NCBI GenBank assembly: GCA_902802115.1
Contig: CADCKW010000001.1
Coordinates: forward strand, 72,409-136,408
DNA: 64,000 nt
Source of the DNA: an uncultured Pseudomonadota bacterium
GTDB lineage: Bacteria > Pseudomonadota > Alphaproteobacteria > Rs-D84
Reading direction: 5' to 3'
Shown here: positions 2,361-47,373 of the stretch, piece by piece
Numbering within the stretch: position 1 is the first letter of the stretch
Layout of the letters: every line of letters starts with the position of its first letter
Notes under the pieces: model-generated
Seen by the model: the letters and a program-made list of their open reading frames with translations, nothing else
Databases searched by the model: none
What the model was told of the DNA's origin: nothing
Position numbers and translations under genes: made by a program

Positions 2361-2903
2361 ATGCAAAATACAATAATTTTAACTTTATCCACATTAACAT
2401 TTATCGGGGTTATCGCGACATTTATAATAATGATGAAATTGAGTAATAAAATCAGTGATATTACCAACACTTTGACATATCAATATAATATGATTATGAA
2501 AATTCAATCAACATTGAAAAATAAAAACGCAACAAATGCGGTGGCTGAAAATGCCGAAATTATTTATTCAGATTTATTACAAAACTTAATTCCAATTATG
2601 GCGGCATTGGACACAATGCCACGCAACACAACCGAACACCCATTGTGGCGCGCACTGGGTGGCATTATGGACGAATACGCAAAAAATCCATTTGCATTGG
2701 AAAAATTGCGTCGTTGTATTAAACTGGACAGTAATATCGCCCACAATGTAAATAACTATATCGCACGCGCAAATAAATTATTGCAGTATTTAACAACCAC
2801 AGAACCCGATGGTATTTTATCATCAACATTTACAGACGGCCTGTTGGGACAATCATTAACATTTTTCGGTCAGGCCCAACAACTTGCAGAAAGCGGTGAT
2901 TAA
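2361..2903 (+). CDS. Hypothetical membrane-anchored protein
   Basis: 180-aa ORF. An AGGAG RBS (caggagtttgatATG) precedes it. It has an N-terminal TM helix. Its stop is adjacent to the sufB start. Confidence 0.5.
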   Translation: MQNTIILTLSTLTFIGVIATFIIMMKLSNKISDITNTLTYQYNMIMKIQSTLKNKNATNAVAENAEIIYSDLLQNLIPIMAALDTMPRNTTEHPLWRALGGIMDEYAKNPFALEKLRRCIKLDSNIAHNVNNYIARANKLLQYLTTTEPDGILSSTFTDGLLGQSLTFFGQAQQLAESGD

Positions 2904-2905
2904 AT

Positions 2906-4234
2906 TTGAAACTGGATACAAAACTTATTTGTGAAATATCTGCTTTACGTCATGAACCAAAATGGCTGACTGATTGGCGACTTGCTGCATTTGAAAATTG
3001 GAAAAAAATGATTGAGCCACATTGGGCCGAAATAAATTACAACCCAATCGATTATGATTCTTTTGATTATTACGCAACACAAAAACCCATAGATAATTCA
3101 GATTTGGCAGACACATATAAAAAAATGAACTTGCCAGATGCCGAACAGCGCGCCTTATTGGGTATGGCAACCGACACTGTTATCGACAGTCAATCTGTGC
3201 ATACATCTTTCAGCGACGAATTATCAAAACTGGGGATTATATTTTTACCTTTTTCCCAGGCTGTCATTCAATACCCAGATTTAGTAAAAAAATATTTAGG
3301 TTCTGTGGTTCCGTCAAACGATAACTTTTTTGCAGCACTAAATTCTGCTGTATTTTCAGACGGCACATTTGTTTATGTCCCACCACATACAAAATGCCCT
3401 ATTGATTTGGCCAGTTATTTTAGAATTGAAACCGCAAAAATTGGACAATTTGAACGCACACTGATTATCGCAGACCATGGCGCCGAACTCAGTTATATGG
3501 AAGGTTGCAGTGCCCCGCGTCGCCCAAACCATCAATTACACAGTGGGGTTGTTGAAATCGTTGTAATGGACGATGCACATGTCAAATACGCGACTGTCCA
3601 AAATTGGTATGCCGGAAAAACAGTTGGTAAAAAATCTGTGGGTGGAATTTTAAACTTTGTCACAAAACGCGGCAAATGCGAAAATAACGCAACACTTGAT
3701 TGGACCCAGGTCGAAATCGGTTCCAGTATGACATGGAAATACCCATCAACGATTTTATCCGGAAACAATGCGCATAGCGACTTTTACTCACTAACAATTA
3801 CACGCGGCGCACAACAATCTGATACAGGAACAAAAATGATTCATATTGGGAATAATTCTGTATCAAACATTGTGTCGTATGGTGTGGCATTGGATAATTC
3901 AAAGCAAACATTTCGCAGTCTGGTAAATTTCACAGGACAAAACTGCACAAATGCGTCCAAATGCGACACTACAATTATTGGTCCTGACGCAATCGCAAAC
4001 ACAATTCCAACAATTATTCATACCAACAACTTGAATCACCAATCGCACGAGGCAACAACCGGCACAATTGATGCCGCCACCCTGTTTTATCTGGAACAAT
4101 CAGGTCTGGACACCGATACCGCAATTGCACTGATTATCGGCGCAACTGCAAATCCTATTTTAAACAGATTACCGATGGAATTCTTGGTTGAATCCAAACA
4201 ACTGATACAAATGGCAATACACCAAGGGGAATAA
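2906..4234 (+). CDS. sufB: Fe-S cluster assembly protein SufB
   Basis: 442 aa with characteristic SufB/SufD-family motifs (…ADHGAELSYMEGCSAPRRP…VQNWYAGK…). It is followed directly by sufC. The start is a TTG at 2906, which is uncertain. Confidence 0.85.
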   Translation: MKLDTKLICEISALRHEPKWLTDWRLAAFENWKKMIEPHWAEINYNPIDYDSFDYYATQKPIDNSDLADTYKKMNLPDAEQRALLGMATDTVIDSQSVHTSFSDELSKLGIIFLPFSQAVIQYPDLVKKYLGSVVPSNDNFFAALNSAVFSDGTFVYVPPHTKCPIDLASYFRIETAKIGQFERTLIIADHGAELSYMEGCSAPRRPNHQLHSGVVEIVVMDDAHVKYATVQNWYAGKTVGKKSVGGILNFVTKRGKCENNATLDWTQVEIGSSMTWKYPSTILSGNNAHSDFYSLTITRGAQQSDTGTKMIHIGNNSVSNIVSYGVALDNSKQTFRSLVNFTGQNCTNASKCDTTIIGPDAIANTIPTIIHTNNLNHQSHEATTGTIDAATLFYLEQSGLDTDTAIALIIGATANPILNRLPMEFLVESKQLIQMAIHQGE

Positions 4235-4988: not shown

Positions 4989-6035
4989 ATGACAAACGGA
5001 ATAATTGTTTTCACCGGAATTGTGATATTATTATGGTTCGGTCGTTCCATACTGATACCATTATTGGTGGCAATATTTTTATGGTATTTGATAAATGCAA
5101 TTGCTGCATATTTTCGTAAAATTTTACCATTTAGTTATTGTGTAAAAAATTGTCCAACATTTTGGCCAGGATTTTTTAACATATTATCAATATTATTATC
5201 CGCAACCAGTTTATGTTGGCTGCTTTATGCATTTGCAACACAAATAAATCCAATGTTTTCAGAATTCGTCGCACGAATTCCTGAAATACAATCTAAATTA
5301 ATATCATTCAGCACATATCTGTTTCATCAACTGGGATTAACATTTGATATCAATATGTTCCCCAATTTGACAGACATTGTAAAAACCGTCGGTTCATCTG
5401 CGGCAAACATCGCGACATCATTTGGTATGATATTGATTTACATTTTGTTTTTATTTGTGGAACAAAGCACATTTCATAAAAAATTAAACAATCTATTTGA
5501 ATCAAAATCCAAAACAAACAAATTCAAATTTATTATCGACAGTTTTGATAAAAACATGAAAAAATATTTATTTGTAAAAACCATTATTGCCGCTGCGACC
5601 GGAATTGGCGCATATATATGGTTGCGAATAATAGGATTGGAATTTGCAGGTGTTTGGGCATTTTTAGTATTCATCATGAATTACATACCAACAATTGGTT
5701 CGATTGTGGCATGTGCCATGCCGATTCTATACGCACTGATTTCGGGAGATTCTGTAAATTTACCAATATTAACCGCTGGCGGATTAATTGCGTTGGAAAT
5801 ATTATTTGGCAATATTTTGGATCCAAAATTTATGGGAAAAACATTAAATTTATCCACATTGGCAATATTAATAAATCTGGTATTTTGGGGATTATTGTGG
5901 GGAATCGCGGGAATGTTTTTCAGCGTTCCTATTTTGGCGGCAATATTCATTATCACCGCACAGTTTGATTCAACCCGTTGGATTGCTGTATTGTTATCAA
6001 CAGACGGTCAAATTCCAGAAAAAACCGAAGATTAA
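4989..6035 (+). CDS. AI-2E family (PerM/YhhT-like, UPF0118) membrane transporter
   Basis: 348-aa polytopic membrane protein. Its length and hydropathy pattern fit the AI-2E family. An AAAGGAGG RBS lies upstream. Confidence 0.6.
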   Translation: MTNGIIVFTGIVILLWFGRSILIPLLVAIFLWYLINAIAAYFRKILPFSYCVKNCPTFWPGFFNILSILLSATSLCWLLYAFATQINPMFSEFVARIPEIQSKLISFSTYLFHQLGLTFDINMFPNLTDIVKTVGSSAANIATSFGMILIYILFLFVEQSTFHKKLNNLFESKSKTNKFKFIIDSFDKNMKKYLFVKTIIAAATGIGAYIWLRIIGLEFAGVWAFLVFIMNYIPTIGSIVACAMPILYALISGDSVNLPILTAGGLIALEILFGNILDPKFMGKTLNLSTLAILINLVFWGLLWGIAGMFFSVPILAAIFIITAQFDSTRWIAVLLSTDGQIPEKTED

Positions 6036-6037
6036 CC

Positions 6038-6070
6038 TGTTCCACGAAGTTTTAACGAAGTGGAAAAAAA
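6038..6070. repeat. Short hairpin repeat, CCAC-gaag…cgaag-GTGG family, copy 2
   Basis: The hairpin is tgTTCCACgaagttttaacgaaGTGGAAaaaaa, with a 6-bp stem and a loop gaagttttaacgaa. Confidence 0.5.
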
Positions 6071-6087
6071 TTCGTTCTATATGCATT

Positions 6088-6114
6088 AAATCCGCCATAT
6101 TGGCGGATTTTCAT
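6088..6114 (+). terminator. Putative rho-independent terminator after the AI-2E transporter gene
   Basis: The hairpin aaatccgccatattggcggattt is followed by a short T-run. Confidence 0.5.
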
Positions 6115-6175
6115 TGTCCCACGAAGCCCTTGTCACATGAAGTTTTAACGAAGTGTGATTGGCGAAGTGGGATTA
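6113..6175. repeat. Short hairpin repeat, CCAC-gaag…cgaag-GTGG family, copy 3 (nested)
   Basis: The outer hairpin tgTCCCACgaagcc…ggcgaagTGGGAtt contains an inner copy cacatgaagttttaacgaagtgtg. Confidence 0.5.
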
Positions 6176-6619
6176 TTGTCTGTTAATTATTGCAATTGCA
6201 TTTTCCAAAATTACACGCGCAGATTGCGAATCTAAATTTTGTTTTATATCCACACGACGCACCCGCCCCATAGATTCTTGGGCAGATGCCGACGACAAAG
6301 TTTCGTCCAACAAACAAATAGGAACATCAATTGTTTGTGACAAAGAATCTGCAAATGCACGCACCATTTTTGTTGTATCTGAATCTGTGCCATCAATACG
6401 CAACGGCAAACCAATAACAACACCGGTTGCATGTTCGGTATTTATAATCGAAGATATTTTTTGAACCAAATCGTCATTTCCAGCCGCCAAAACAACGGGT
6501 CGCACAAACACAAAATCGCGATTTTCATCACTGACCGCGACCCCTGTCCTACGTGCGCCCCAATCAACACCAACAATTCGTCCTTTTTTAGAAAAATCCT
6601 TGAAATCAGGCAAAATCAT
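6173..6619 (-). CDS. ruvX: Holliday-junction resolvase-like / pre-16S rRNA nuclease YqgF (RuvX)
   Basis: 148 aa. The N-terminus GRIVGVDWGARRTGVAVSD matches the YqgF family. Confidence 0.8.
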   Translation of the reverse strand: MILPDFKDFSKKGRIVGVDWGARRTGVAVSDENRDFVFVRPVVLAAGNDDLVQKISSIINTEHATGVVIGLPLRIDGTDSDTTKMVRAFADSLSQTIDVPICLLDETLSSASAQESMGRVRRVDIKQNLDSQSARVILENAIAIINRQ

Positions 6620-6656
6620 AGTATAATTCCTTTACTTTAACAATATAGGATTGAAA

Positions 6657-6953
6657 ATGGCATTTAGCAAGCAACAATTACAAAAATTCGCAGACTTGAT
6701 TAAAATTGAAATCACTGACGAAAAACTGGAACAAATGAACATCGACAGTGTTGTTGATTGGTTAAACAAATTACAAAAAATCGATACAACGGGCGTTAAA
6801 CCATTATTAAACCCCAGCGAACACGATTTACCAATGCGTGCCGATGTTGTGACCGAACCAAATATGCGCGATAAAATATTGGCAAATTCACCTGACAAGG
6901 CCGGCGTATCACGCGGATATTTTGCAGTACCAAAAGTCATGGACGCAGATTAA
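6657..6953 (+). CDS. gatC: Glutamyl-tRNA(Gln) amidotransferase subunit C
   Basis: About 98 aa with a GatC-like sequence (MAFSKQQLQKFADLIKIEITDEKLEQ…LPMRADVVTEP). An AGGA RBS is 8 nt before the ATG at 6657; the ORF track starts at 6651. Confidence 0.8.
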   Translation: MAFSKQQLQKFADLIKIEITDEKLEQMNIDSVVDWLNKLQKIDTTGVKPLLNPSEHDLPMRADVVTEPNMRDKILANSPDKAGVSRGYFAVPKVMDAD

Positions 6954-6965
6954 AAGGATATTAAA

Positions 6966-7340
6966 ATGGCAAAAAAGTCAAATGTACATTTAAAAACAGT
7001 TGAACACATCTATGGATTGTCTGGTGCGCAACCATGTGGCCATTTATCTGCTGATGAAATTAATGATTTAATTGAACAAATCAAAAATGCAAAAATTCCA
7101 TTTGAATCTTGCATAATATCAATGTCTGTCGATTTGTCACAATATTTCTGCAATATGAAAATATTCAAACTGGCATCCAAATCAGAACATTTAACAATCA
7201 ACCTTAACACATGCAAAAAATGTGGGATACATAAACAAATACATTGTCCAAAACAAATTGCATCAGGTAAATGCCAAGAAGAAATTGTAATAGATTTAAT
7301 TGGCAAAAAATTATTCGCTGATAAATATCAAGGAAAATAA
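6966..7340 (+). CDS. Cys-rich paralog A (domain X), unknown function
   Basis: 124 aa with an AAGGA RBS. The C-terminus CKKCGIHKQIHCPKQIASGKCQEEIVIDLIGKKLFADKYQGK is shared with gene B. Confidence 0.6.
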   Translation: MAKKSNVHLKTVEHIYGLSGAQPCGHLSADEINDLIEQIKNAKIPFESCIISMSVDLSQYFCNMKIFKLASKSEHLTINLNTCKKCGIHKQIHCPKQIASGKCQEEIVIDLIGKKLFADKYQGK

Positions 7341-7344
7341 GGTT

Positions 7345-7758
7345 ATGGCAACGAAAAAAGACAATGTTTTTTTAAAAATCAAAGATAGTAAAAATGGACC
7401 ACATTTTTACTCATGTGGTTACATGTCTACTGACACCATCAAAAAATTATATTCGGAACTCCGTTGCACACTTTCTTTACATGATGTAAAACAATTAAAC
7501 GGACATTGCGCACACATAGAATCTGCACAGATTACAACAACATCAATAGAGATAAAAACTTTCAAAGGCAATCGATCCAGGGTTTCTTACAAATTAGAAA
7601 TTGTTTTAAACAACCCTTGTCCACATGTTCCTTGTTGTGATGTTTTACATCCAAAATGGGATTGTTTAAATTGCATTGCAAAAGGGAAATGCCAAGATGA
7701 GATGATAATAAAGTTACTAGGTAAAAAATTATTTGCTGAAAAATATCAAGGAAAATAA
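7345..7758 (+). CDS. Cys-rich paralog B (domain X), unknown function
   Basis: 137 aa from the ATG at 7345; the ORF track gives a longer alternative start at 7300. The RBS aagga comes from the KYQGK codons of gene A. The C-terminus is CPHVPCCDVLHPKWDCLNCIAKGKCQDEMIIKLLGKKLFAEKYQGK. Confidence 0.6.
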   Translation: MATKKDNVFLKIKDSKNGPHFYSCGYMSTDTIKKLYSELRCTLSLHDVKQLNGHCAHIESAQITTTSIEIKTFKGNRSRVSYKLEIVLNNPCPHVPCCDVLHPKWDCLNCIAKGKCQDEMIIKLLGKKLFAEKYQGK

Positions 7759-7760
7759 AA

Positions 7761-8045
7761 ATGCAACACAGAATTACACAACAAGTAAAAATTTGTCCAT
7801 TGGATTCATTCTTGAATGTTCGTGAACACAATGGTCCCGATACCCCATACCAATTGGAAGTATATCATTCAGATAAAAGTCCAACCAAAAATATTGGTGC
7901 GATATCACATTATTCTGGAAAATATTCATATGCCATTGGAACACCTGTTGATGTAAAACCGCATGTCACAGTAAATATGGGCTGCTGGCTGACCAATGTA
8001 ATTATGAATGAATGTTTAAAAAATTACATCCGCGGACAATACTAA
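7761..8045 (+). CDS. Paralog C (domain Y), unknown function
   Basis: 94 aa. It is homologous to the C-terminal half of D (PLD…Y.E.Y..DKSP…SY.IG..V.V). Its RBS is supplied by gene B's terminal codons. Confidence 0.55.
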   Translation: MQHRITQQVKICPLDSFLNVREHNGPDTPYQLEVYHSDKSPTKNIGAISHYSGKYSYAIGTPVDVKPHVTVNMGCWLTNVIMNECLKNYIRGQY

Positions 8046-8067
8046 GAAAAAAATAGGAATCAAAAAA

Positions 8068-8742
8068 ATGCCAAAAGAAAACAATAATGTTTTTTTACAA
8101 ACAAAAGATTTATCCAAGACATACGAACACGAATGTGGCACATGGTCTTTGGAACAAATGCGATCTTTTCAAGATTCTTTAGCTGGTAAAGAAATCCCCA
8201 GAACATCTTGTTTGTTTGGTATAAACACCACATTAAATCGCACAGGTCATACCGCACGAGTTTACAAAATGCCAAGCGGTTTTAATCTGGAACCAATTAC
8301 AGAAAAATTAACTATACATGTAAATCCAGATATCGTAAATTGCCCATGTCACGTAAATGGTCCCCAAGAATGTTTGAAATGTATTGCATCGGGCAAATGT
8401 CCTGATAAATTCGTTCAAGATACATTTGCCTGTGAACTGTTTCCTCATTTATATGTCCAAGAACAAACTATAACAAAAATAGACAACTATATCCAGCCCC
8501 TGGACGGACTACGCAATTTTTGTTCTGATTCCAAAGAGGCCGTATACCAATATGAATATTATCTCACAGATAAAAGTCCAAACGAACACGTTATAGCATT
8601 AACACAATATACAGGACATCATTCGTACAAAATCGGTGACCATGTAATGGTTCAAAAGCTTATACCAATATCTTTCGGATTATACGATAAAAACCGTATA
8701 TTGACTGATGTCGTAAAAAAACGTTTTGGCATAGATAGATAA
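8068..8742 (+). CDS. Paralog D (fused domains X+Y), unknown function
   Basis: 224 aa. The N-terminus resembles A and B (NVFLQTKD…, CPCHVNGPQECLKCIASGKCPDK). The C-terminus resembles C. An AGGAA RBS precedes it. Confidence 0.6.
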   Translation: MPKENNNVFLQTKDLSKTYEHECGTWSLEQMRSFQDSLAGKEIPRTSCLFGINTTLNRTGHTARVYKMPSGFNLEPITEKLTIHVNPDIVNCPCHVNGPQECLKCIASGKCPDKFVQDTFACELFPHLYVQEQTITKIDNYIQPLDGLRNFCSDSKEAVYQYEYYLTDKSPNEHVIALTQYTGHHSYKIGDHVMVQKLIPISFGLYDKNRILTDVVKKRFGIDR

Positions 8743-8765
8743 AAAACAAAAATAGGAAGAAAGAA

Positions 8766-10235
8766 ATGATTGATTTAACGATTGTTGAAGCACTAAAAAA
8801 ATTAAAATCGCGTGAAATATCTGCGACCGAATTAACACGTGCGCATTTAAACCGTATCGAAAAATTCGGGGGCGAATTAAATTGCTATATCACAACAACC
8901 CCTGAACGCGCGTTAAGCGATGCAGCGGCGGCTGATGAACGTTATTCACGTGGCACTGCGCGCGTTTTGGACGGTATTCCAATCGCGATGAAGGATTTAT
9001 TTGCAACATGTGGTATTCGCACAACGGCGGCATCACACATGCTGGAAAATTTTGTTCCAGAATATGAATCAACAATTTCACAAAAATATATTGATGCTGG
9101 AACGGTCCTGTTGGGCAAGGCAAACCTGGACGAATTCGCAATGGGCACATTTTCCAAAACTTCCTATTTTGGTGCCCCGGTCAGTCCATGGCAACGCAGT
9201 CGCAGACTCACCGCCGGCGGTTCATCAGGTGGAACAACATCTGCGGTGGCTGGCGGTCTTGCCATGGGCGGCACCGGTACCGACACAGGTGGTTCGATTC
9301 GTTTTCCTGCATCTATTACTGGATTGGTTGGTGTAAAACCAACATACGGTTTATGTTCTCGTTGGGGTTGTATCGCATTTGCATCAAGTCTGGATACCCC
9401 GGGACCAATCGCACGCACCGTTGATGATGCTGCCATTTTATTATCAATTATGGCGGGCCATGATGAAAAAGATTCAACCAGCAGCCCAAATCAAAATTTT
9501 CATATATCGGGCGAATTGGAACCAATCTTGGGCAATGGCAAAAAATTGCGCGTTGGCATAATCAAAGAATTCAAAGATGTTGAAATATCACCTGATATGA
9601 AACGCATATTTGATGCAAGAATTCGCGATTTAGAATCCGCTGGCGCAGAAATAGTCGAAGTTTCAATTCCAAATATTTTGGACGCATTGGCGGCATATTA
9701 CATAATTGCCCCGGCCGAGGCTTCATCAAACCTGGCACGCTATGACGGTGTTCGTTATGGTTTGCGCGTCGAAGGCAAAGATATTTACGATACATACAAA
9801 AAGACGCGTGCTGCTGGCTTTGGCGAGGAAGTACAACGCCGTATGATTATTGGAACCGCGGTTTTATCTTCGGAATCATACGATGTGTATTTTATGCAGG
9901 CCGCACGCGTTCGTCGTTTAATTGCAGATGCTTTCAATCGTGCATTTGAACAATGTGACTTGATTGTATGCCCGGCGGGCGCATCAACCGCACAACCACT
10001 GGACGCAGATTTGTCCCCATTGGAATATTACGCATTGGATTTATTTACCGTTGCCATGAATTTGGCAGGTGTCCCTGCGGTCAGCGTTCCGGCTGGCATG
10101 GCGGAAAATGGTTTGCCATTGGGAATGCAGGTTGTAGGGCGCCGTTTTGACGATTTACGCGCATTGCAATTGGCAAAACATATCCAAGAATTCAGCGGTG
10201 TTGATAATCGTCCAACAAAAATCATGGGTGAATAA
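8766..10235 (+). CDS. gatA: Glutamyl-tRNA(Gln) amidotransferase subunit A (amidase family)
   Basis: 489 aa with the amidase signature (GGSSGG…GTDTGGSIR) and the GatA pattern. Confidence 0.9.
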   Translation: MIDLTIVEALKKLKSREISATELTRAHLNRIEKFGGELNCYITTTPERALSDAAAADERYSRGTARVLDGIPIAMKDLFATCGIRTTAASHMLENFVPEYESTISQKYIDAGTVLLGKANLDEFAMGTFSKTSYFGAPVSPWQRSRRLTAGGSSGGTTSAVAGGLAMGGTGTDTGGSIRFPASITGLVGVKPTYGLCSRWGCIAFASSLDTPGPIARTVDDAAILLSIMAGHDEKDSTSSPNQNFHISGELEPILGNGKKLRVGIIKEFKDVEISPDMKRIFDARIRDLESAGAEIVEVSIPNILDALAAYYIIAPAEASSNLARYDGVRYGLRVEGKDIYDTYKKTRAAGFGEEVQRRMIIGTAVLSSESYDVYFMQAARVRRLIADAFNRAFEQCDLIVCPAGASTAQPLDADLSPLEYYALDLFTVAMNLAGVPAVSVPAGMAENGLPLGMQVVGRRFDDLRALQLAKHIQEFSGVDNRPTKIMGE

Positions 10236-10276
10236 TCAAATGAAAAAAATGTTGGGAAAAAATGAGTATAAAAAAA

Positions 10277-10352
10277 TGGTGGCCAGAAGTGGAATCGAAC
10301 CACTGACACAGGGATTTTCAGTCCCTTGCTCTACCAACTGAGCTATCTGGCC
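10277..10352 (-). tRNA. tRNA-Phe (GAA)
   Basis: The reverse complement folds as a cloverleaf: GGCCAGA-TA-GCTC-AGTTGGTA-GAGC-A-AGGGA-CTGAAAA-TCCCT-GTGTC-AGTGG-TTCGATT-CCACT-TCTGGCC-ACCA. The anticodon is GAA and the CCA is encoded. Confidence 0.85.
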
Positions 10353-10406
10353 ATCCGCAGGGGAAATATTAAAGTATAAAAAAACAAAAAGCAAGGAAAA
10401 ATAAAA

Positions 10407-11930
10407 ATGTATACAATAAAAGGCAAAACAGGTGATTGGGAAGTAGTTGTTGGTTTGGAAACTCATATAGAGGTTTTATCCAACAGTAAAATTTTCAGTG
10501 GTGCGTCCGCAAATTACAATCCAACAATCGCCCCCAATACCCATGTATCATTTGTTGATGCGGCTATGCCAGGCATGTTGCCAGTATTGAACGAATATTG
10601 CGTTGATCAGGCCATTAAATTTGGTTTGGGTATCAATGCAGAAATTTCACGCGTCAGCCGTTTTGCCCGCAAACAATATTTTTACCCTGACCTGCCCCAA
10701 GGATATCAAATTTCGCAACCGGCGGACGAACCACCCGTTGTCGGTCGCGGTTGGGTTGAAATCATCGGCGATGACGGTAATCCCAAAAAGATTTTAATCG
10801 AACGCGCACATTTGGAACAGGACGCGGCAAAAAACAAACATGATATGCACCCAACAAAATCATTTGTTGATTTGAATCGTTCTGGGGTCACATTATTGGA
10901 AATCGTGACATTTTTAGATGTAAAAAATTCAGAAAACAATTCATATATTTCGTCCCCTGACGAAGCCGAACAATATTTGCGTAAAATTCGTGAAATCGCG
11001 CGCGCATTGGGCGTATCCAAGGCAAATATGGAAGAAGGTTCCATGCGTGCCGACGTCAATGTTTCTGTCCGCCGCGCGGGCTCCAAAAAATTTGGAACAC
11101 GCACAGAAACAAAAAACATGGTATCATTTAAATTTATCAAAAACGCCATTGAATACGAGGCAAACCGCCAAGTAGAACTGTTGGAATCCGGCGGCACCGT
11201 CACCCAAGACACTATGCGTTATAACCAAGCCGACGGGACCACATCTGTCCTGCGCAGCAAAGAAGACGCGTTGGATTATCGTTATTTCCCAGACCCAGAT
11301 TTATTGCCATTGGTTATAACCGACGAACGCATTGAACGTATCCGTAAAACAATGCCAGAATTGCCAGAGGCAACACGCGCACGCTATATCAACACATACG
11401 GATTAAACGAATATGATGCGGCACGTTTAACCGAAACAACCGATATTTCACATTGGTTTGATACAGCGGTTGGCAACAAAGCCGAACGTGCCAAACCAAT
11501 TGCAAACTGGATGATTAGTGAATTGTTTGCACACCCTGAAAACTATGATATTACAAATACGGTGCGCGAACGTGATGCGGACGAACCACGCATTATCACA
11601 CCTGAAAATATTGCCGAATTGGTTGATATGATTGGGGCATCCGAAATCAACGGCAAACAGGCCAAAGAAATATTTATCAAAATGTTAGACGGCGAAACCG
11701 GCACACCACATGAAATTGCCGACAAATTTGGTATGAAACAAATGACAGATACCGGCGCCATTGAAAAAATCATTGATGATGTTTTATCACAAAATGCATC
11801 TCAGGTTGAACAATATAAATCTGGCAAGGTTGGATTGTTTGGATTCTTTGTTGGTGCCGTCATGCGTGCAACCGGTGGCAAGGCAAACCCAGGTGTCGTA
11901 AATGAAATTTTGAAAAAGAAGTTGGGTTAA
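10407..11930 (+). CDS. gatB: Glutamyl-tRNA(Gln) amidotransferase subunit B
   Basis: 507 aa with GatB/GatE-family sequence throughout (…WEVVVGLETHIEV…). Confidence 0.9.
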   Translation: MYTIKGKTGDWEVVVGLETHIEVLSNSKIFSGASANYNPTIAPNTHVSFVDAAMPGMLPVLNEYCVDQAIKFGLGINAEISRVSRFARKQYFYPDLPQGYQISQPADEPPVVGRGWVEIIGDDGNPKKILIERAHLEQDAAKNKHDMHPTKSFVDLNRSGVTLLEIVTFLDVKNSENNSYISSPDEAEQYLRKIREIARALGVSKANMEEGSMRADVNVSVRRAGSKKFGTRTETKNMVSFKFIKNAIEYEANRQVELLESGGTVTQDTMRYNQADGTTSVLRSKEDALDYRYFPDPDLLPLVITDERIERIRKTMPELPEATRARYINTYGLNEYDAARLTETTDISHWFDTAVGNKAERAKPIANWMISELFAHPENYDITNTVRERDADEPRIITPENIAELVDMIGASEINGKQAKEIFIKMLDGETGTPHEIADKFGMKQMTDTGAIEKIIDDVLSQNASQVEQYKSGKVGLFGFFVGAVMRATGGKANPGVVNEILKKKLG

Positions 11931-11936
11931 ACAACA

Positions 11937-13235
11937 ATGGCAAAAAAATTTTATATAAAAACTTTTGGTTGCCAAATGAACGTTTATGATGGATTGCGTA
12001 TCGCCGCAATGTTGGAACATCATGGACTCGAAAGCACAGACAATGTCGCCGATGCAGACATAATTTTATTAAACACATGCGCGGTTCGTGCCAAGGCAAC
12101 CGATAAAGTATATTCTGCATTGGGACGCATACGACGCGCAAAAAAACCAGATGCAATATATGGCATTGTTGGTTGCGTTGCACGCGAATCTGGTGCCGAT
12201 GCATTTCGTAAAATCCGCGATTTGAATTTTGTTTTGGGGCCACAAAGTTATCATAAATTGCCTGAAATAATTAAAAATCCAGATAGTAAATTACTGGACA
12301 TTGATTTGGGTGGTTTGGAAAAATTTGATGAATTACCACCAATAACTAAATCACCATTTGTCGCATATATTCCTGTCCAGGAAGGTTGCAATCATTGTTG
12401 TACATATTGCATTGTGCCTTTCACGCGTGGTCGCGAAATATCCAGACCATATAACGATATTTTGGCGGAAACAATGCATGCAGCCGCCGTTGGCGCAATT
12501 GAAATTTGTTTTATCGGTCAAAATGTAAATGGATATAAATACACCGATGAAAATGGAAAAACATATCGTTTATCAGACCTGATAAAACAAACTGCAAAAA
12601 TTGATTCTGTGAAACGAATTCGTTTTACGTCCAGTTATCCAACCGAAATGACAGATGATTTAATTGAACTATTTAAAACCGAATCAAAATTATTACCATT
12701 TTTGAACATGCCAATTCAAAGTGGTTCTAATAATATTTTACAAAAAATGAATCGTCAATATAATCTGGACGAATATATAACAATAATAAATAAATTCAAA
12801 ATTGCCCGTCCAGACATACAAATTTCCAGTGATTTTATCGTTGGTTTTCCTGGCGAAACGAATACTGATTTTGAACAAACCGTCGATATAGCCAAGCAGA
12901 TTAAATACATAAATTCTTATTCATTTAAATATTCGCCCCGGCCTCATACTGCGGCGGCAATTATGCAAAATCAAATTCCAGAAAACATAAAAAGCGAACG
13001 TTTAATAAAACTGGACGCGGTATTGAACGATATTCAACGCGAGTTTAATTTATCATGCCAAGATAAAGTTTTTGATTGCTTATACGAAGGTGCTGATAAA
13101 ACTGGTACAAAACAAATTTATCGCACCCCATATATGCAGCCATGTATTGTTGAAACGGATAATCCAACCCCAATGGCACGCATAAAAATCACATCTGGAA
13201 ACAAATCATGCCTGCATGGAAAAATTGTTGATTAA
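11937..13235 (+). CDS. miaB: Radical-SAM methylthiotransferase, MiaB/RimO family
   Basis: 432 aa. It has the N-terminal MTTase Cys pattern (FGCQMN…NTCAVR…GCV) and the radical-SAM CxxxCxxC motif (CNHCCTYC). Confidence 0.8.
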   Translation: MAKKFYIKTFGCQMNVYDGLRIAAMLEHHGLESTDNVADADIILLNTCAVRAKATDKVYSALGRIRRAKKPDAIYGIVGCVARESGADAFRKIRDLNFVLGPQSYHKLPEIIKNPDSKLLDIDLGGLEKFDELPPITKSPFVAYIPVQEGCNHCCTYCIVPFTRGREISRPYNDILAETMHAAAVGAIEICFIGQNVNGYKYTDENGKTYRLSDLIKQTAKIDSVKRIRFTSSYPTEMTDDLIELFKTESKLLPFLNMPIQSGSNNILQKMNRQYNLDEYITIINKFKIARPDIQISSDFIVGFPGETNTDFEQTVDIAKQIKYINSYSFKYSPRPHTAAAIMQNQIPENIKSERLIKLDAVLNDIQREFNLSCQDKVFDCLYEGADKTGTKQIYRTPYMQPCIVETDNPTPMARIKITSGNKSCLHGKIVD

Positions 13236-14518
13236 AAAGCAAGTTTAACATTTGCAGAAAATTTACCAGTCCAACCAAAATCTGTATCAACCACACCGAT
13301 TGATATGCCACCACCAATTTTATCAGCAACCGTCCATATTGCTAAATCAATCGCGGCATCTAAATACCCGGCTGAATTTATACCGCCACGTAAATTATAT
13401 GAATATGATACACCGTCCATAAAATATTTAAATCCAACATCTGTTCCTGTATGCAACAAATACATATTATCATGCGCATTTGAAATTTTTACATCATTTG
13501 CACTAATTCCAACAAACGGTGATAAAAATAAACCTGATTCAAAATTAAATTTTGCACCAATATCTGTTCCAAAATAATATCCAACCACATTTGGATTGTT
13601 ATTTGATGATGTTTTTATTTTTGCAAAACTTAAACCACCAACACCGCGCACAAACATAACATCATTTAATTCATATAACACACGCAGATTTCCACCATAT
13701 ATCGCATAATCAAAATCATCAACCCCATACTTGAATTCTGCCCCAGATAAATATGCCGTTGCCCCGACAAACAACCGACCGGCAACTTTGGCGCCAGAAT
13801 TCAAACGCAAACCAATTCCATTAAAATCCGATGCGTTATAATAATCAGGTGCCACAGATAAAAAATAATCATCAACAAAATCAAACTTTGCAAATAACTC
13901 GTGTTGATTTATCGCCGATACAGGTCGCAATAATACCGATGGCGTATATTGCAACATTGAATCAATACCTGTCAAACCCGCAGACACCTGGTGTGATGCC
14001 AAATATGATGCCGAATAGCGACGATTTATACACCTACCCGAACCACCGTCACATGCACCCCACTCATACACAAAATCGTTTGATGGATTTGCTTCTTCTA
14101 TATCAGGCGCCCTATTCCAACTTAAATTATGAAAAACAACCAAATCATTTTGTTCGCCATTTATCCCGTTCAAGAAAGGTTCTTGGAATCGAAACACAAC
14201 ATTATCGTTTTGAATTGATAAATCTGTATTAAAATCATTATCTGTTAAAAACGACCCATCAACCAACAATGCAATTCTTTGCGAACCGCCATCTATTTTC
14301 AAAACAGTCGCACCAATGTTATCCAGAGCACTCAATGAATATCCACTACCACCTATGATAACAACCTCTTCATTTACTGGCCGAGATAACGAATCTAAAT
14401 CTGCTGGACTTTCAATTGGCGGAACGAAACCAAACACAGCACGTGTGATAAATAATTCAACCGCCATACAAGATGCCAACATTACATATCTCATATAATA
14501 AAGTCTAATAAAGCACAA
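13232..14518 (-). CDS. Outer-membrane beta-barrel protein (hypothetical)
   Basis: 428 aa ending …NVKLAF (C-terminal Phe). It shows alternating-hydrophobic beta-strand patterns and a signal peptide. The start is uncertain; an alternative ATG is at 14494. Confidence 0.55.
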   Translation of the reverse strand: MCFIRLYYMRYVMLASCMAVELFITRAVFGFVPPIESPADLDSLSRPVNEEVVIIGGSGYSLSALDNIGATVLKIDGGSQRIALLVDGSFLTDNDFNTDLSIQNDNVVFRFQEPFLNGINGEQNDLVVFHNLSWNRAPDIEEANPSNDFVYEWGACDGGSGRCINRRYSASYLASHQVSAGLTGIDSMLQYTPSVLLRPVSAINQHELFAKFDFVDDYFLSVAPDYYNASDFNGIGLRLNSGAKVAGRLFVGATAYLSGAEFKYGVDDFDYAIYGGNLRVLYELNDVMFVRGVGGLSFAKIKTSSNNNPNVVGYYFGTDIGAKFNFESGLFLSPFVGISANDVKISNAHDNMYLLHTGTDVGFKYFMDGVSYSYNLRGGINSAGYLDAAIDLAIWTVADKIGGGISIGVVDTDFGWTGKFSANVKLAF

Positions 14519-45408: not shown

Positions 45409-47373
45409 TTAATTACGTTTATCAAGTCTATACGCAATGAAACCGCCAAAAATTGCAATTAGAACAATTATAACAAACCACGCATCACGCCCCAACAACC
45501 TATACAAAGTCATATGGGAACCAGTTGCCACACCGTCCAACACACCAATTTGTCCAATGGGTAATTGCGATATAATTTTACCGTCCGCACCAACAAACGC
45601 ACTAATTCCAGAATAATTAGCCCTGATAACCGGAACACCCGATTCGATTGCCGCCCTGCGCACCATATCCAGATGTTGATATGTCCCCGGCGTTTTTCCA
45701 AACCAAGTATCATTTGTTATATTCACAATCGCATCAACATAATCATTTTTTACAACCGCATTTGAAAATATAATTTCATAGCAAACCGCCGGCGCAAAAA
45801 CAAAACTGGTGTTTTTATCAATACGTAAATCCATCAAACGCGCACCTTGCCCAGCCGTCAAATTTGCAGGTGTTGGAATAAATTTAATTGGACCATATTC
45901 ACCAAACGGCACCAAATGAGATTTACTGTAATAATCTAAAATATCACCATTTTCATTTGCCAAAACCAATGAATTATATACTGACGAATCATAATCAACA
46001 ACATGCGCACCAATTATCACAGGAACATTTAATTGTTTTGCAATCGGCATAAAATCATTTGGACGCAATGCAAACGGATACGATGTTTCTGGATAAATAA
46101 CAACATCAATATTGCGAACATCACCCGCCAATTTTATCAATGCATCAACACGATTTTTTGCCTGATTCAATGCGTCCGCACGCGTCATAGAAATTTTAGA
46201 TTCTTGACTGGTCACTGGTTGAACGACACGAATTCGCGTTGCACTATTACCCATATTTGATATTCCAATATTATTATATCCTGCAAACAACCCAACAACC
46301 AAAACCAGCATAAAAAACACAAACAAAAACCAATTCGCTTTGCCACCACGATTATATAATAATTGCACAGACGATGCAATCAAACCAAATATCACAAATC
46401 CTAATCCCAATGCACCAAACAACGACATAGAATTCGAAATAATTGCGCCACCCAAAGTAATATTTGCAATTGGATTCCATGGAAACCCAGTCAAAAACCA
46501 TTCACGCAACCACAACACCGCAGTTGCCGACAAAGCAAAAACCATTGGTTTTACACTATTTTCATTGTATATACATCGTGTCAATACAAATGGAATTGTG
46601 AATATAATTGCGCCAACCAATGCCAATCCAATCAATGCCGGCCCGGTCCAAATTGCAAATTGTTTTGTTAATTCCGGAACAACATATATGGAATTTAACG
46701 ACCACCAAAACATAGAAATTGAATACATGGCACCAAACGGAATCGCACGCAGCCAAACCCGCCACCAAGAAACTTTGTCATCACCCATACACAGCAACCA
46801 ATATGCCGCCCCAAATGCCAAAATTGTTATCCACCATAAATTAAAAGGCGCAAAACCCAACGATGCCAAACCACCCAGCACCCCAACCAACACATATTTC
46901 CACCATTTAAACCCAGAAACATTTTCATCAGCATACGGATTTTTAAACCCTAACTTTTTCAAAACTTTAATTTCTTTGGCCTCCATAACACGCGCCTGGG
47001 CATCAGTCAAATGATCATAACCCAACAAATGAAACATACCATGCACAACCATATGCGCCGTATGTTCAGCCACAGAAATATTCGCCGCCGCCGCTTCACG
47101 TTTTACAGTATCCAACGATATATAAATATCCCCCAACAAAATATCGTCACCCAATTCAAAAGACAAAACATTTGTTGGTTTATCCATATTACGATACATT
47201 TTATTCATCGCATGAATTTCATTATCATCAGTCAAAGTAATAGAAACCTCGGCATCACGATATTTTGCGCCAACAACCGCATTTGCAATTTTTTCAAAAT
47301 CTATATTATATTTTTTCCAACGTGAATCATTGTAATTAACATAAACTTTCATTTTTATCGCCTCTATACGCAT
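45409..47373 (-). CDS. ybeY-lnt: Fusion protein: endoribonuclease YbeY (N-terminus) + apolipoprotein N-acyltransferase Lnt (C-terminus)
   Basis: 654-aa single ORF. Residues about 1-150 carry the YbeY metal motif HGMFHLLGYDH and the C-terminal …LKKLGFKNPY. Polytopic Lnt follows directly (FAPFNLWWI…), with a CN-hydrolase domain (VVIYPE…, catalytic Cys in APAVCYEIIF). No stop separates them. Confidence 0.75.
   Translation of the reverse strand: MRIEAIKMKVYVNYNDSRWKKYNIDFEKIANAVVGAKYRDAEVSITLTDDNEIHAMNKMYRNMDKPTNVLSFELGDDILLGDIYISLDTVKREAAAANISVAEHTAHMVVHGMFHLLGYDHLTDAQARVMEAKEIKVLKKLGFKNPYADENVSGFKWWKYVLVGVLGGLASLGFAPFNLWWITILAFGAAYWLLCMGDDKVSWWRVWLRAIPFGAMYSISMFWWSLNSIYVVPELTKQFAIWTGPALIGLALVGAIIFTIPFVLTRCIYNENSVKPMVFALSATAVLWLREWFLTGFPWNPIANITLGGAIISNSMSLFGALGLGFVIFGLIASSVQLLYNRGGKANWFLFVFFMLVLVVGLFAGYNNIGISNMGNSATRIRVVQPVTSQESKISMTRADALNQAKNRVDALIKLAGDVRNIDVVIYPETSYPFALRPNDFMPIAKQLNVPVIIGAHVVDYDSSVYNSLVLANENGDILDYYSKSHLVPFGEYGPIKFIPTPANLTAGQGARLMDLRIDKNTSFVFAPAVCYEIIFSNAVVKNDYVDAIVNITNDTWFGKTPGTYQHLDMVRRAAIESGVPVIRANYSGISAFVGADGKIISQLPIGQIGVLDGVATGSHMTLYRLLGRDAWFVIIVLIAIFGGFIAYRLDKRN

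Follow-up and report, generated by a model that had tools for sequence, protein, structure and literature searches.

Between gatC and gatA, two genes for subunits of the same essential enzyme, Candidatus Enterousia has a slot whose content varies throughout the genus. It is studied here in a stretch of 64,000 nucleotides (nt) of contig CADCKW010000001.1 (assembly GCA_902802115.1, positions 72,409-136,408 of the + strand, G+C content 38.7%), referred to below as the window, which comes from an uncultured Pseudomonadota bacterium (Alphaproteobacteria; Rs-D84). In the window, the slot holds four small genes (A, B, C and D), which together with genes found in the slot of relatives encode three protein families new to databases. 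Family X comprises A, B and the N-terminal half of D, family Y comprises C and the C-terminal half of D, and family Z is represented in related loci. The slot is very probably an integrase-free hotspot in which such gene cassettes are exchanged between gatC and gatA. The role of the cassettes can be proposed much more tentatively: they might encode intracellular metal-binding modulators contacting nucleic acid or RNA polymerase, of which each strain would possess its own repertoire. The hotspot and the intracellular modulators, taken together as one explanation, have about an even chance of being correct. According to published work (PMC12306168), Candidatus Enterousia (order Rs-D84) are predicted to live as obligate symbionts or parasites, and their genomes stay below ~1 Mb.

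Relatives of the window were collected by scanning one genome per species (15 loci, all of them in Alphaproteobacteria of gut or rumen that have not been cultured, some being named Candidatus Enterousia), by a metagenome scan (21 further loci) and by a GatC search that returned hundreds of GatC proteins at 79-97% identity, some of them named Ca. Enterousia. The slot census was made on the 48 related loci (Ca. Enterousia, order Rs-D84) having both gatC and gatA, 15 of which had been retrieved via gatC alone and are thus unbiased with respect to X. The slot was occupied in all 48 loci, including all 15 of the latter, by one to five genes in 20 architectures, the smallest gap being 342 nt. These architectures include X, XX, XXX, Y, YX, an XY-fusion, XZ, ZX, XYZ, ZXZ, XXZZ and Z-X-Z-XY, while that of the window is X-X-Y-XY. 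Around this variable interior the setting is conserved, since sufBD, sufC, an AI-2E transporter gene, ruvX, gatA, gatB and miaB are found in the window and in ~50 related loci. The linkage of gatC and gatA was kept in all relatives sampled, and simple adjacency of two normally unlinked genes, which the first-pass annotation of this DNA had left open, was not seen. On this census, the array is no peculiarity of its source genome. The picture of a lineage-specific, rapidly diversifying family given by this annotation, which was made from the letters of the window, is accurate in that the genes are clade-restricted and fast-diverging, but they are not confined to the source genome.

Slot content differs even between very close relatives. 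Contigs encoding an identical GatC protein carry X, Z-X-Z or X-Y-Z, and loci with gatA 98-99% identical differ in carrying Y or Y-X. In two strains of the window's own species (L001 and L002, 96% nt identity in gatA), the order is gatC-C-D-gatA, A and B being missing as a precise indel, and D alone is present in L005, a relative whose GatA protein is 92% identical. A Y-family gene was also found between ruvX and gatC in three loci (L014 4620-4928, L024 1207-1518 and L029 2592-2930), so the variable zone reaches the other side of gatC. That gat genes need not be contiguous is also illustrated by Mycobacterium tuberculosis, in which the order is gatC-gatA-pfkA-gatB. However, the interruption there is a fixed housekeeping gene, while here it is a variable array that differs between strains.

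Exchange of cassettes between species is apparent from their similarity. Across all loci, exchange pairs were defined as cassettes with at least 95% nt identity in genomes with gatA at most 90% identical, and 23 such pairs (types X, Y, Z and XY) were found, in all of which gatA was 83-87.5% identical. Cassette identity between species was 95-98%, and synonymous divergence (dS, Nei-Gojobori estimates, as are all values of dN and dS given here) was 0.06-0.17 for the cassettes versus 0.67-0.81 for gatA and gatC in the same comparisons, i.e. 4-14 times lower. For example, A is 98.1% and 97.3% identical to the X gene of L013 and L014, respectively, where gatC is 85% and gatA 84-85% identical (dS 0.06-0.09 versus 0.67-0.81 for gatA), which suggests that A has recently been exchanged between species. 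Likewise, D is 97.3% identical to its counterpart in L029, where gatA is 84% identical (dS 0.059 versus 0.81 for gatA). Sliding-window identity outlined exchanged tracts with sharp edges. That of D begins in the spacer preceding its start codon, where identity to L029 rises from 50% to 98%, and extends ~15-45 nt into gatA. That of A (window versus L013) covers the gene from its start codon as far as the conserved 3' motif. Both tracts examined thus end at gene boundaries or in conserved cassette ends, from which we infer that homologous recombination brings about the gain, loss and swapping of cassettes.

The cassettes themselves appear to be functional genes under purifying selection. The ratio of non-synonymous to synonymous substitutions (dN/dS) was 0.02-0.13 for C, 0.04-0.36 for A and 0.13-0.58 for D, next to 0.06-0.12 for gatA and gatC, and C differs from a strain variant by a dN of 0.004 and a dS of 0.217. 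These values (0.02-0.6) indicate that the open reading frames (ORFs) are not debris, and pseudogene fragments were rejected on this ground. The view that the array consists of decaying fragments (frameshift debris) or of the remnants of a mobile element (integron, prophage or transposon) is accordingly largely refuted and deserves scarcely any credence. It could draw on the collinearity of B and C with D, since these two genes lie 2 nt apart in different frames, but strong purifying selection on C and the abundance of stand-alone X and Y genes across 112 clusters (see below) speak against debris. A mobile remnant is at odds with spacers and inverted repeats that are nowhere of attC size, with neighbouring ORFs devoid of integrase or transposase Pfam domains and with the lack of any match in a scan of viral contigs and in tblastn searches of phages and plasmids; a prophage or plasmid remnant was rejected. 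The first-pass annotation had correctly noted that there is no integrase or transposase, which holds for the neighbours scanned with Pfam, but its statement that no repeats flank the array has to be amended, since two 24-nt spacers 79% alike flank D.

As first annotated, four intact co-directional ORFs lie between gatC and gatA, coordinates and Pfam anchors being in agreement, each gene is preceded by an AGGA-type motif and there is no + strand terminator-like site before the end of gatA. The spacers along gatC-A-B-C-D-gatA are 12, 4, 2, 22 and 23 nt long, with such a motif in each. A strong promoter-like match (11/12, by consensus match alone) was found upstream of gatC only, which suggests an operon-like arrangement behind a gatC promoter. 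In the scenario that we favour, the cassettes would be transcribed from this promoter and translated via their own ribosome-binding sites (RBSs), which in part overlap the conserved tail of the cassette before. They would be gained, lost and swapped by homologous recombination, for which gatC, gatA and the conserved X ends (5' and 3') would provide the anchors. These ends are discernible within the array itself. Over their last 113 nt, A and B share 76% identity, versus 57% over the aligned codons of the whole genes, and B and D likewise share 76% identity over their first 42 nt. The near-identical tails of A and B pointed out in the first-pass annotation do exist, since both contain aaatatcaaggaaaataa and harbour the RBS of the next gene. 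However, they are not specific to A and B: this tail (LIGKKLFADKY and a short basic end) is a hallmark of the entire X family and not the scar of a local duplication.

How does this compare with known cassette systems? In integrons, each cassette has an attC site (an imperfect inverted repeat of ~57-141 nt), with the IntI tyrosine recombinase and attI adjacent. The array resembles integron arrays in being made of co-directional, tightly packed small ORFs with no strong promoter match of their own, which may be expressed from one upstream promoter, in having single genes gained, lost and reordered as units and in encoding many products of no assigned function. Unlike integrons, it is embedded in an essential operon and has neither attC, for which spacers of only 2-23 nt leave no room, nor IntI, and its exchange apparently relies on ordinary homology in gatC, gatA and the cassette ends. 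The inverted repeats found in 6600-8800 measure 14-15 nt and all lie within coding sequence. An integron was rejected since attC and IntI were not found. The slot also recalls capsule/O-antigen loci and defence-island hotspots, with its fixed position, conserved flanks, strain-variable content and an interior that is far less diverged after transfer. It differs from these in that its units are single tiny genes with breakpoints at gene boundaries inside the array, its flanks encode subunits of one essential enzyme and its contents match no defence or surface-structure family. Free-standing homing endonuclease genes residing between conserved phage genes exemplify 'intronless homing', and like them the cassettes lie between essential genes, are variably present and are far more similar between genomes than their flanks. 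However, X has no HNH, GIY-YIG or LAGLIDADG motif and no conserved set of His, Asp and Glu, four Cys being its sole invariants.

The relationships between the four genes that had been proposed from the sequence are borne out, A, B and the N-terminal half of D being paralogous and C being homologous to the C-terminal half of D. All pairwise BLASTP E-values fall between 1e-14 and 3e-9 (e.g. 3e-11 for A and 3e-9 for B versus the N-terminal half of D), and D is matched by the hidden Markov models (HMMs) of both X (4e-32) and Y (7e-29). Although tblastn revealed no further copies of A-D within the 64-kb window, an exhaustive profile search of 1.84 billion cluster representatives returned 112 relatives. 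Most of these are X-only proteins (~120-145 amino acids (aa), like A and B) or Y-only proteins (~87-107 aa, like C). D-like fused forms are rare (P0001, P0016 and P0032), as are X-X tandem fusions (one, P0100), and a word-indexed protein search with D found two clusters only, at 99% and 81%. That B and C are a split version of D is thus unlikely: since separate X and Y genes are widespread and diverse and fused forms are rare, D most likely arose by fusion of an adjacent X-Y pair. At its junction 'LFPHLYVQEQTITK' (LFPHLY-VQEQ-TITK), an X tail leads collinearly into the beginning of a Y. Such a fusion would imply that X and Y act together. At the B/C junction (7747-7763), B ends with GGA AAA TAA and C starts 2 nt on in the -1 frame, a 2-nt spacing seen again in L025 and L058. 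It could be speculated that tRNA-Lys, by slipping back one nucleotide on the run of A at the B stop, would let translation continue into C, giving a D-like X-Y fusion.

X, Y and Z are mutually unrelated in profile-profile comparisons, and identity between paralogs within arrays is 25-40%. The first impression that A-D belong to no known family, formed before any search, withstood searches of Pfam, NCBIfam, PHROGs and PADLOC, none of which gave a significant match. Z proteins had no match in Pfam or PADLOC, PADLOC defence HMMs gave no match at E<=1 for A, B, C, D and two Z proteins, no Pfam match at E<=0.01 was found for X in any of the 86 members of its alignment, and profile searches of PDB sequences with X, Y and Z found nothing. 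Scattered single Pfam matches among individual members of the X, Y and Z alignments were rejected. No description of the gatC-gatA array was found in the literature searched.

An idea of what these proteins might do comes from their sequence features and predicted structure. In the 86-sequence alignment of X (that of Y has 22 members), four invariant positions (C55, C97, C107 and C116 by the numbering of B) hold a Cys in 85-86 of the 86 sequences. These Cys stand singly, at distances of 42, 10 and 9 positions, i.e. C-x41-C-x9-C-x8-C. D118, G114 and Y134 are nearly invariant, there is no conserved His, and 15 of 25 conserved columns lie within the C-terminal 40 residues. The C-x2-C motif first reported for these genes is accurate for B and D, which have both Cys, but not for A, which reads C-P-K-Q, and the second Cys is an Asn in 58 of 86 X sequences. 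Zinc-ribbon and classical zinc-finger proteins have two CxxC-type knuckles and bind metal. X, for which a zinc-ribbon-like character had been suggested, has four single invariant Cys and no significant structural match. An AlphaFold2 model of X based on the same alignment (pLDDT 90.5, pTM 0.83) consists of two strands, two helices and a long variable beta-hairpin (residues 57-89), followed by a Cys-containing helical module, while that of D, from a 5-sequence alignment, has a pLDDT of 35. No solved structure matches this confident X model significantly. Its best Foldseek matches, which are not significant, include four Alba DNA/RNA-binding proteins.

Several properties point to the cytoplasm and to nucleic acid. 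All three families are distinctly basic, with net charges of +3.7 (X), +2.2 (Y) and +6.5 (Z) per 100 aa, next to a median of -0.8 for the housekeeping proteins of the window. None of the three families has a hydrophobic segment (top 15-residue Kyte-Doolittle means do not exceed 1.65 in X, 1.37 in Y and 1.89 in Z) and N-termini are polar (MAKKSN..., MATKKDN...). Since neither a hydrophobic N-terminus nor a membrane segment was found, Sec-dependent secretion and extracytoplasmic disulfides are unlikely; Sec-secreted disulfide-rich proteins, a possibility raised in the first-pass annotation, were rejected. In relatives, though not among the genes of the window, the array is associated with the C-terminal domain of the RNA polymerase alpha subunit (alpha-CTD). 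The L047 array contains a stand-alone gene (5234-5626) for a 130-aa RNA_pol_A_CTD protein (PF03118, E 1.4e-8; 34.8 bits versus a cut-off of 23.8). L023 encodes a 296-aa protein (2552-3442) with an X domain (hhalign probability 97%) between alpha-CTD-like helix-hairpin-helix segments. The N-terminus of this protein scores 20.8 bits against PF03118, below the 23.8 cut-off, and its C-terminal region aligns weakly with the L047 protein (E 0.012). The four Cys, basic charge, lack of hydrophobic segments and alpha-CTD links together favour, without proving, soluble proteins contacting nucleic acid or RNA polymerase inside the cell. There they would act as metal-binding (Zn or Fe-S) modulators, and their strain-specific repertoire would suit a role in conflict or niche adaptation rather than in tRNA transamidation. 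A parallel could be drawn with the WhiB-like (Wbl) proteins of Actinobacteria, which are small, clade-restricted paralogs with four invariant Cys (C-xn-C-x2-C-x5-C), a G[V/I]WGG turn, a basic C-terminal tail and an all-helical structure. X too is small, clade-restricted and multi-paralog, with four invariant Cys and a basic C-terminal tail, the likeness to an RNA-polymerase-associated metalloprotein being a functional analogy drawn from the alpha-CTD fusions. However, X occurs in another taxon, has a different Cys spacing, no GVWGG turn and no Pfam match, and combines an alpha/beta domain with a Cys module.

Could the cassettes rather be orphan immunity or antitoxin-like genes, i.e. small cytoplasmic proteins collected and swapped for neutralizing the toxins of competitors or phages? 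Orphan immunity-gene arrays and acquired interbacterial defence clusters have reportedly been described (Ross et al. 2019), and the slot genes are like theirs small, diverse, horizontally acquired and strain-variable, with a variable copy number and no obvious enzymatic or conserved catalytic residues. The raised dN/dS of D (0.58) and the combination of a conserved scaffold with a variable beta-hairpin in X would also fit. Nevertheless, there is a toxin gene or domain nearby in 0 of ~60 loci, no homology to Pfam immunity or antitoxin families or to PADLOC entries, no recombinase or mobile element and no conserved two-gene pairing, since X-only, Y-only and mixed arrays all occur. Moreover, the proteins are basic, and their links to domains of the DNA-binding type, such as the alpha-CTD-like fusion, are atypical of immunity proteins. 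This explanation is thus unlikely, and the toxin/immunity-type array envisaged in the first-pass annotation finds no support, no toxin, immunity or defence family having been detected with Pfam or PADLOC.

The same basic character could be read as a sign of export, the basic C-terminal tails being a secretion signal and the Z N-terminus KKRK...RTRKEKRTKR a nuclear localization signal, which would make the proteins effectors delivered into a host or partner cell, for example to its nucleus. This is very unlikely, since hydropathy reveals no signal peptide, window ORFs scanned with Pfam gave Sec, Tat and one TcpQ-like ORF but no other secretion-system genes, the tail bias is modest and missing in Z, and constitutive co-expression with an essential operon would be unusual.

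Finally, the location of the cassettes might suggest accessory subunits or regulators of GatCAB or the transamidosome, which amidates Glu-tRNA-Gln and Asp-tRNA-Asn. A slot filled in 48/48 loci, spacing tight enough for translational coupling and the expectation that genome reduction should purge useless genes would be consistent with this. However, no family is universal, since arrays can be X-only or Y-only, copy number ranges from one to five with 25-40% identity between paralogs, cassettes are transferred between species and X is found after ftsH or next to gyrA in other lineages. This makes such a role most improbable, and a GatCAB subunit was rejected. In the GCA_045648945.1 lineage (L061 4001-7649 and L062 798-4220), X directly follows tilS-ftsH and precedes a gene for an MBL-fold hydrolase, beyond which L061 has a second X and a 95-aa ORF, and L062 one unrelated 212-aa ORF. 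This ftsH-downstream stretch looks like a second operon-embedded variable stretch. X also adjoins gyrA or stands in another context elsewhere (L022 and L036). As X occurs outside the gat operon, and X-only and Y-only arrays both exist, the link of X to gatCAB is positional.

Several points weigh against the cassette hotspot with intracellular modulators. The slot is never empty despite the strong deletion bias of these genomes, which could mean a housekeeping function and fits poorly with a role in conflict. Recombination at the conserved ends rests on two tract analyses. Shuffled sequence has slightly fewer promoter-like sites (20.8 +/- 4.4 versus 30), so that internal promoters are possible. 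The basic charge could reflect binding to any acidic partner, and the alpha-CTD association was seen in two loci only.

What makes the slot worth pursuing is that dispensable DNA should be lost from genomes smaller than 1 Mb, whereas these genes are retained, diversified and traded in all Ca. Enterousia sampled. Their retention points to a function that has escaped recognition and is under strong selection, in an uncultured lineage widespread in gut and rumen. Gene-by-gene recombination that does without dedicated recombinases could be studied here in a clean natural setting, the slot could serve as a marker for typing strains of the genus, and X, Y and Z are targets for structural and binding studies. 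In a bolder version of the favoured scenario, which we regard as decidedly improbable as a whole, this would be the first 'operon-embedded' integrase-free cassette system, the first and last conserved codons of cassettes serving as recombination sites. Its products would be diversifiable Cys4 metalloproteins of novel fold that, with Y and Z partners, reprogramme transcription in a partner-dependent bacterium of less than 1 Mb, be it its own (via RNA polymerase) or, once exported, that of its host or partner.

Table 1. Features of the gatC-gatA slot and its borders in the window (positions are those of the window)
Feature	Position	Strand	Remarks
Promoter-like site, sigma-70-like TTGAAA-16-TATAAT	6600..6627	+	11/12 consensus match; presumed promoter of gatC and array
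gatC, left anchor of slot	6657..6953	+	Pfam GatC E 4.7e-13; 70-99% aa identity in related loci
Gene A, X cassette, 124 aa	6966..7340	+	BLASTP versus B E 1e-14
3' end of A, C-terminal Cys/helix module and RBS of next gene	7228..7340	+	Candidate recombination homology; pairs with 7646-7758
Gene B, X cassette, 137 aa	7345..7758	+	Invariant C55, C97, C107, C116
3' end of B	7646..7758	+	Conserved partner of 7228-7340
Gene C, Y cassette, 94 aa	7761..8045	+	BLASTP versus D C-terminal half E 2e-12
RBS spacer upstream of D	8044..8067	+	Resembles 8743-8766; left edge of exchanged D tract
Gene D, X-Y fusion, 224 aa	8068..8742	+	X part ~8068-8460, Y part ~8461-8742
RBS spacer upstream of gatA	8743..8766	+	24 nt, 79% identical to 8044-8067
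gatA, right anchor of slot	8766..10235	+	Pfam Amidase E 1.3e-134; 79-100% aa identity in related loci

The gatC-gatA slot has neighbours that vary as well. A tRNA-Phe(GAA) gene, the sole Rfam match in 6000-10500, lies antisense between gatA and gatB (10277-10352, - strand) and thus interrupts the gat operon a second time. Its position is kept in all seven related loci checked (L008, L009, L013, L015, L018, L019 and L033). An ORF over the tRNA-Phe region in L009 (7849-8052) and L055 (5661-5864) contains the peptide 'KMVARSGIEPL' twice. Read at the protein level, this suggests that the tRNA-Phe gene has been duplicated in part, as would result from the integration of an element. Unknown genes were found in the gatA-gatB gap of L015 (8674-9198), L019 (7769-8464), L033 (7468-8169) and L044 (6750-7292) and in the gatB-miaB gap of L008 (10273-10695), L009 (9649-10071), L013 (9556-9978), L015 (10869-11366), L018 (10301-11088) and L059 (7607-7987), the latter gap measuring 6 nt in the window. 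They encode proteins of 126-233 aa from unrelated families, several with basic C-terminal tails, and variable slots seem to be scattered over the entire region from gatC to miaB. On the other side, L044-L052 and L059 have an extra gene (~1069-1960 in the coordinates of each locus) between sufC and the AI-2E transporter gene, which is missing from the window and encodes a protein of 282-294 aa, resembling a multi-pass membrane protein in L059.

Elsewhere in the window, three ORFs on the - strand may be mentioned. One of 428 aa (13232-14518), without a Pfam match, evolves far more rapidly than the adjacent genes, showing 23-54% identity in loci where MiaB shows 69-86%. Another (1335-2195) has a TcpQ domain (toxin-co-regulated pilus/secretin-associated, E 4e-17) and is the only one, of the window ORFs searched with Pfam, to hint at an apparatus related to pili or secretion. 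The third, of 654 aa (45409-47373), combines an N-terminal YbeY endoribonuclease domain with apolipoprotein N-acyltransferase (Lnt) domains, an apparent gene fusion or read-through.

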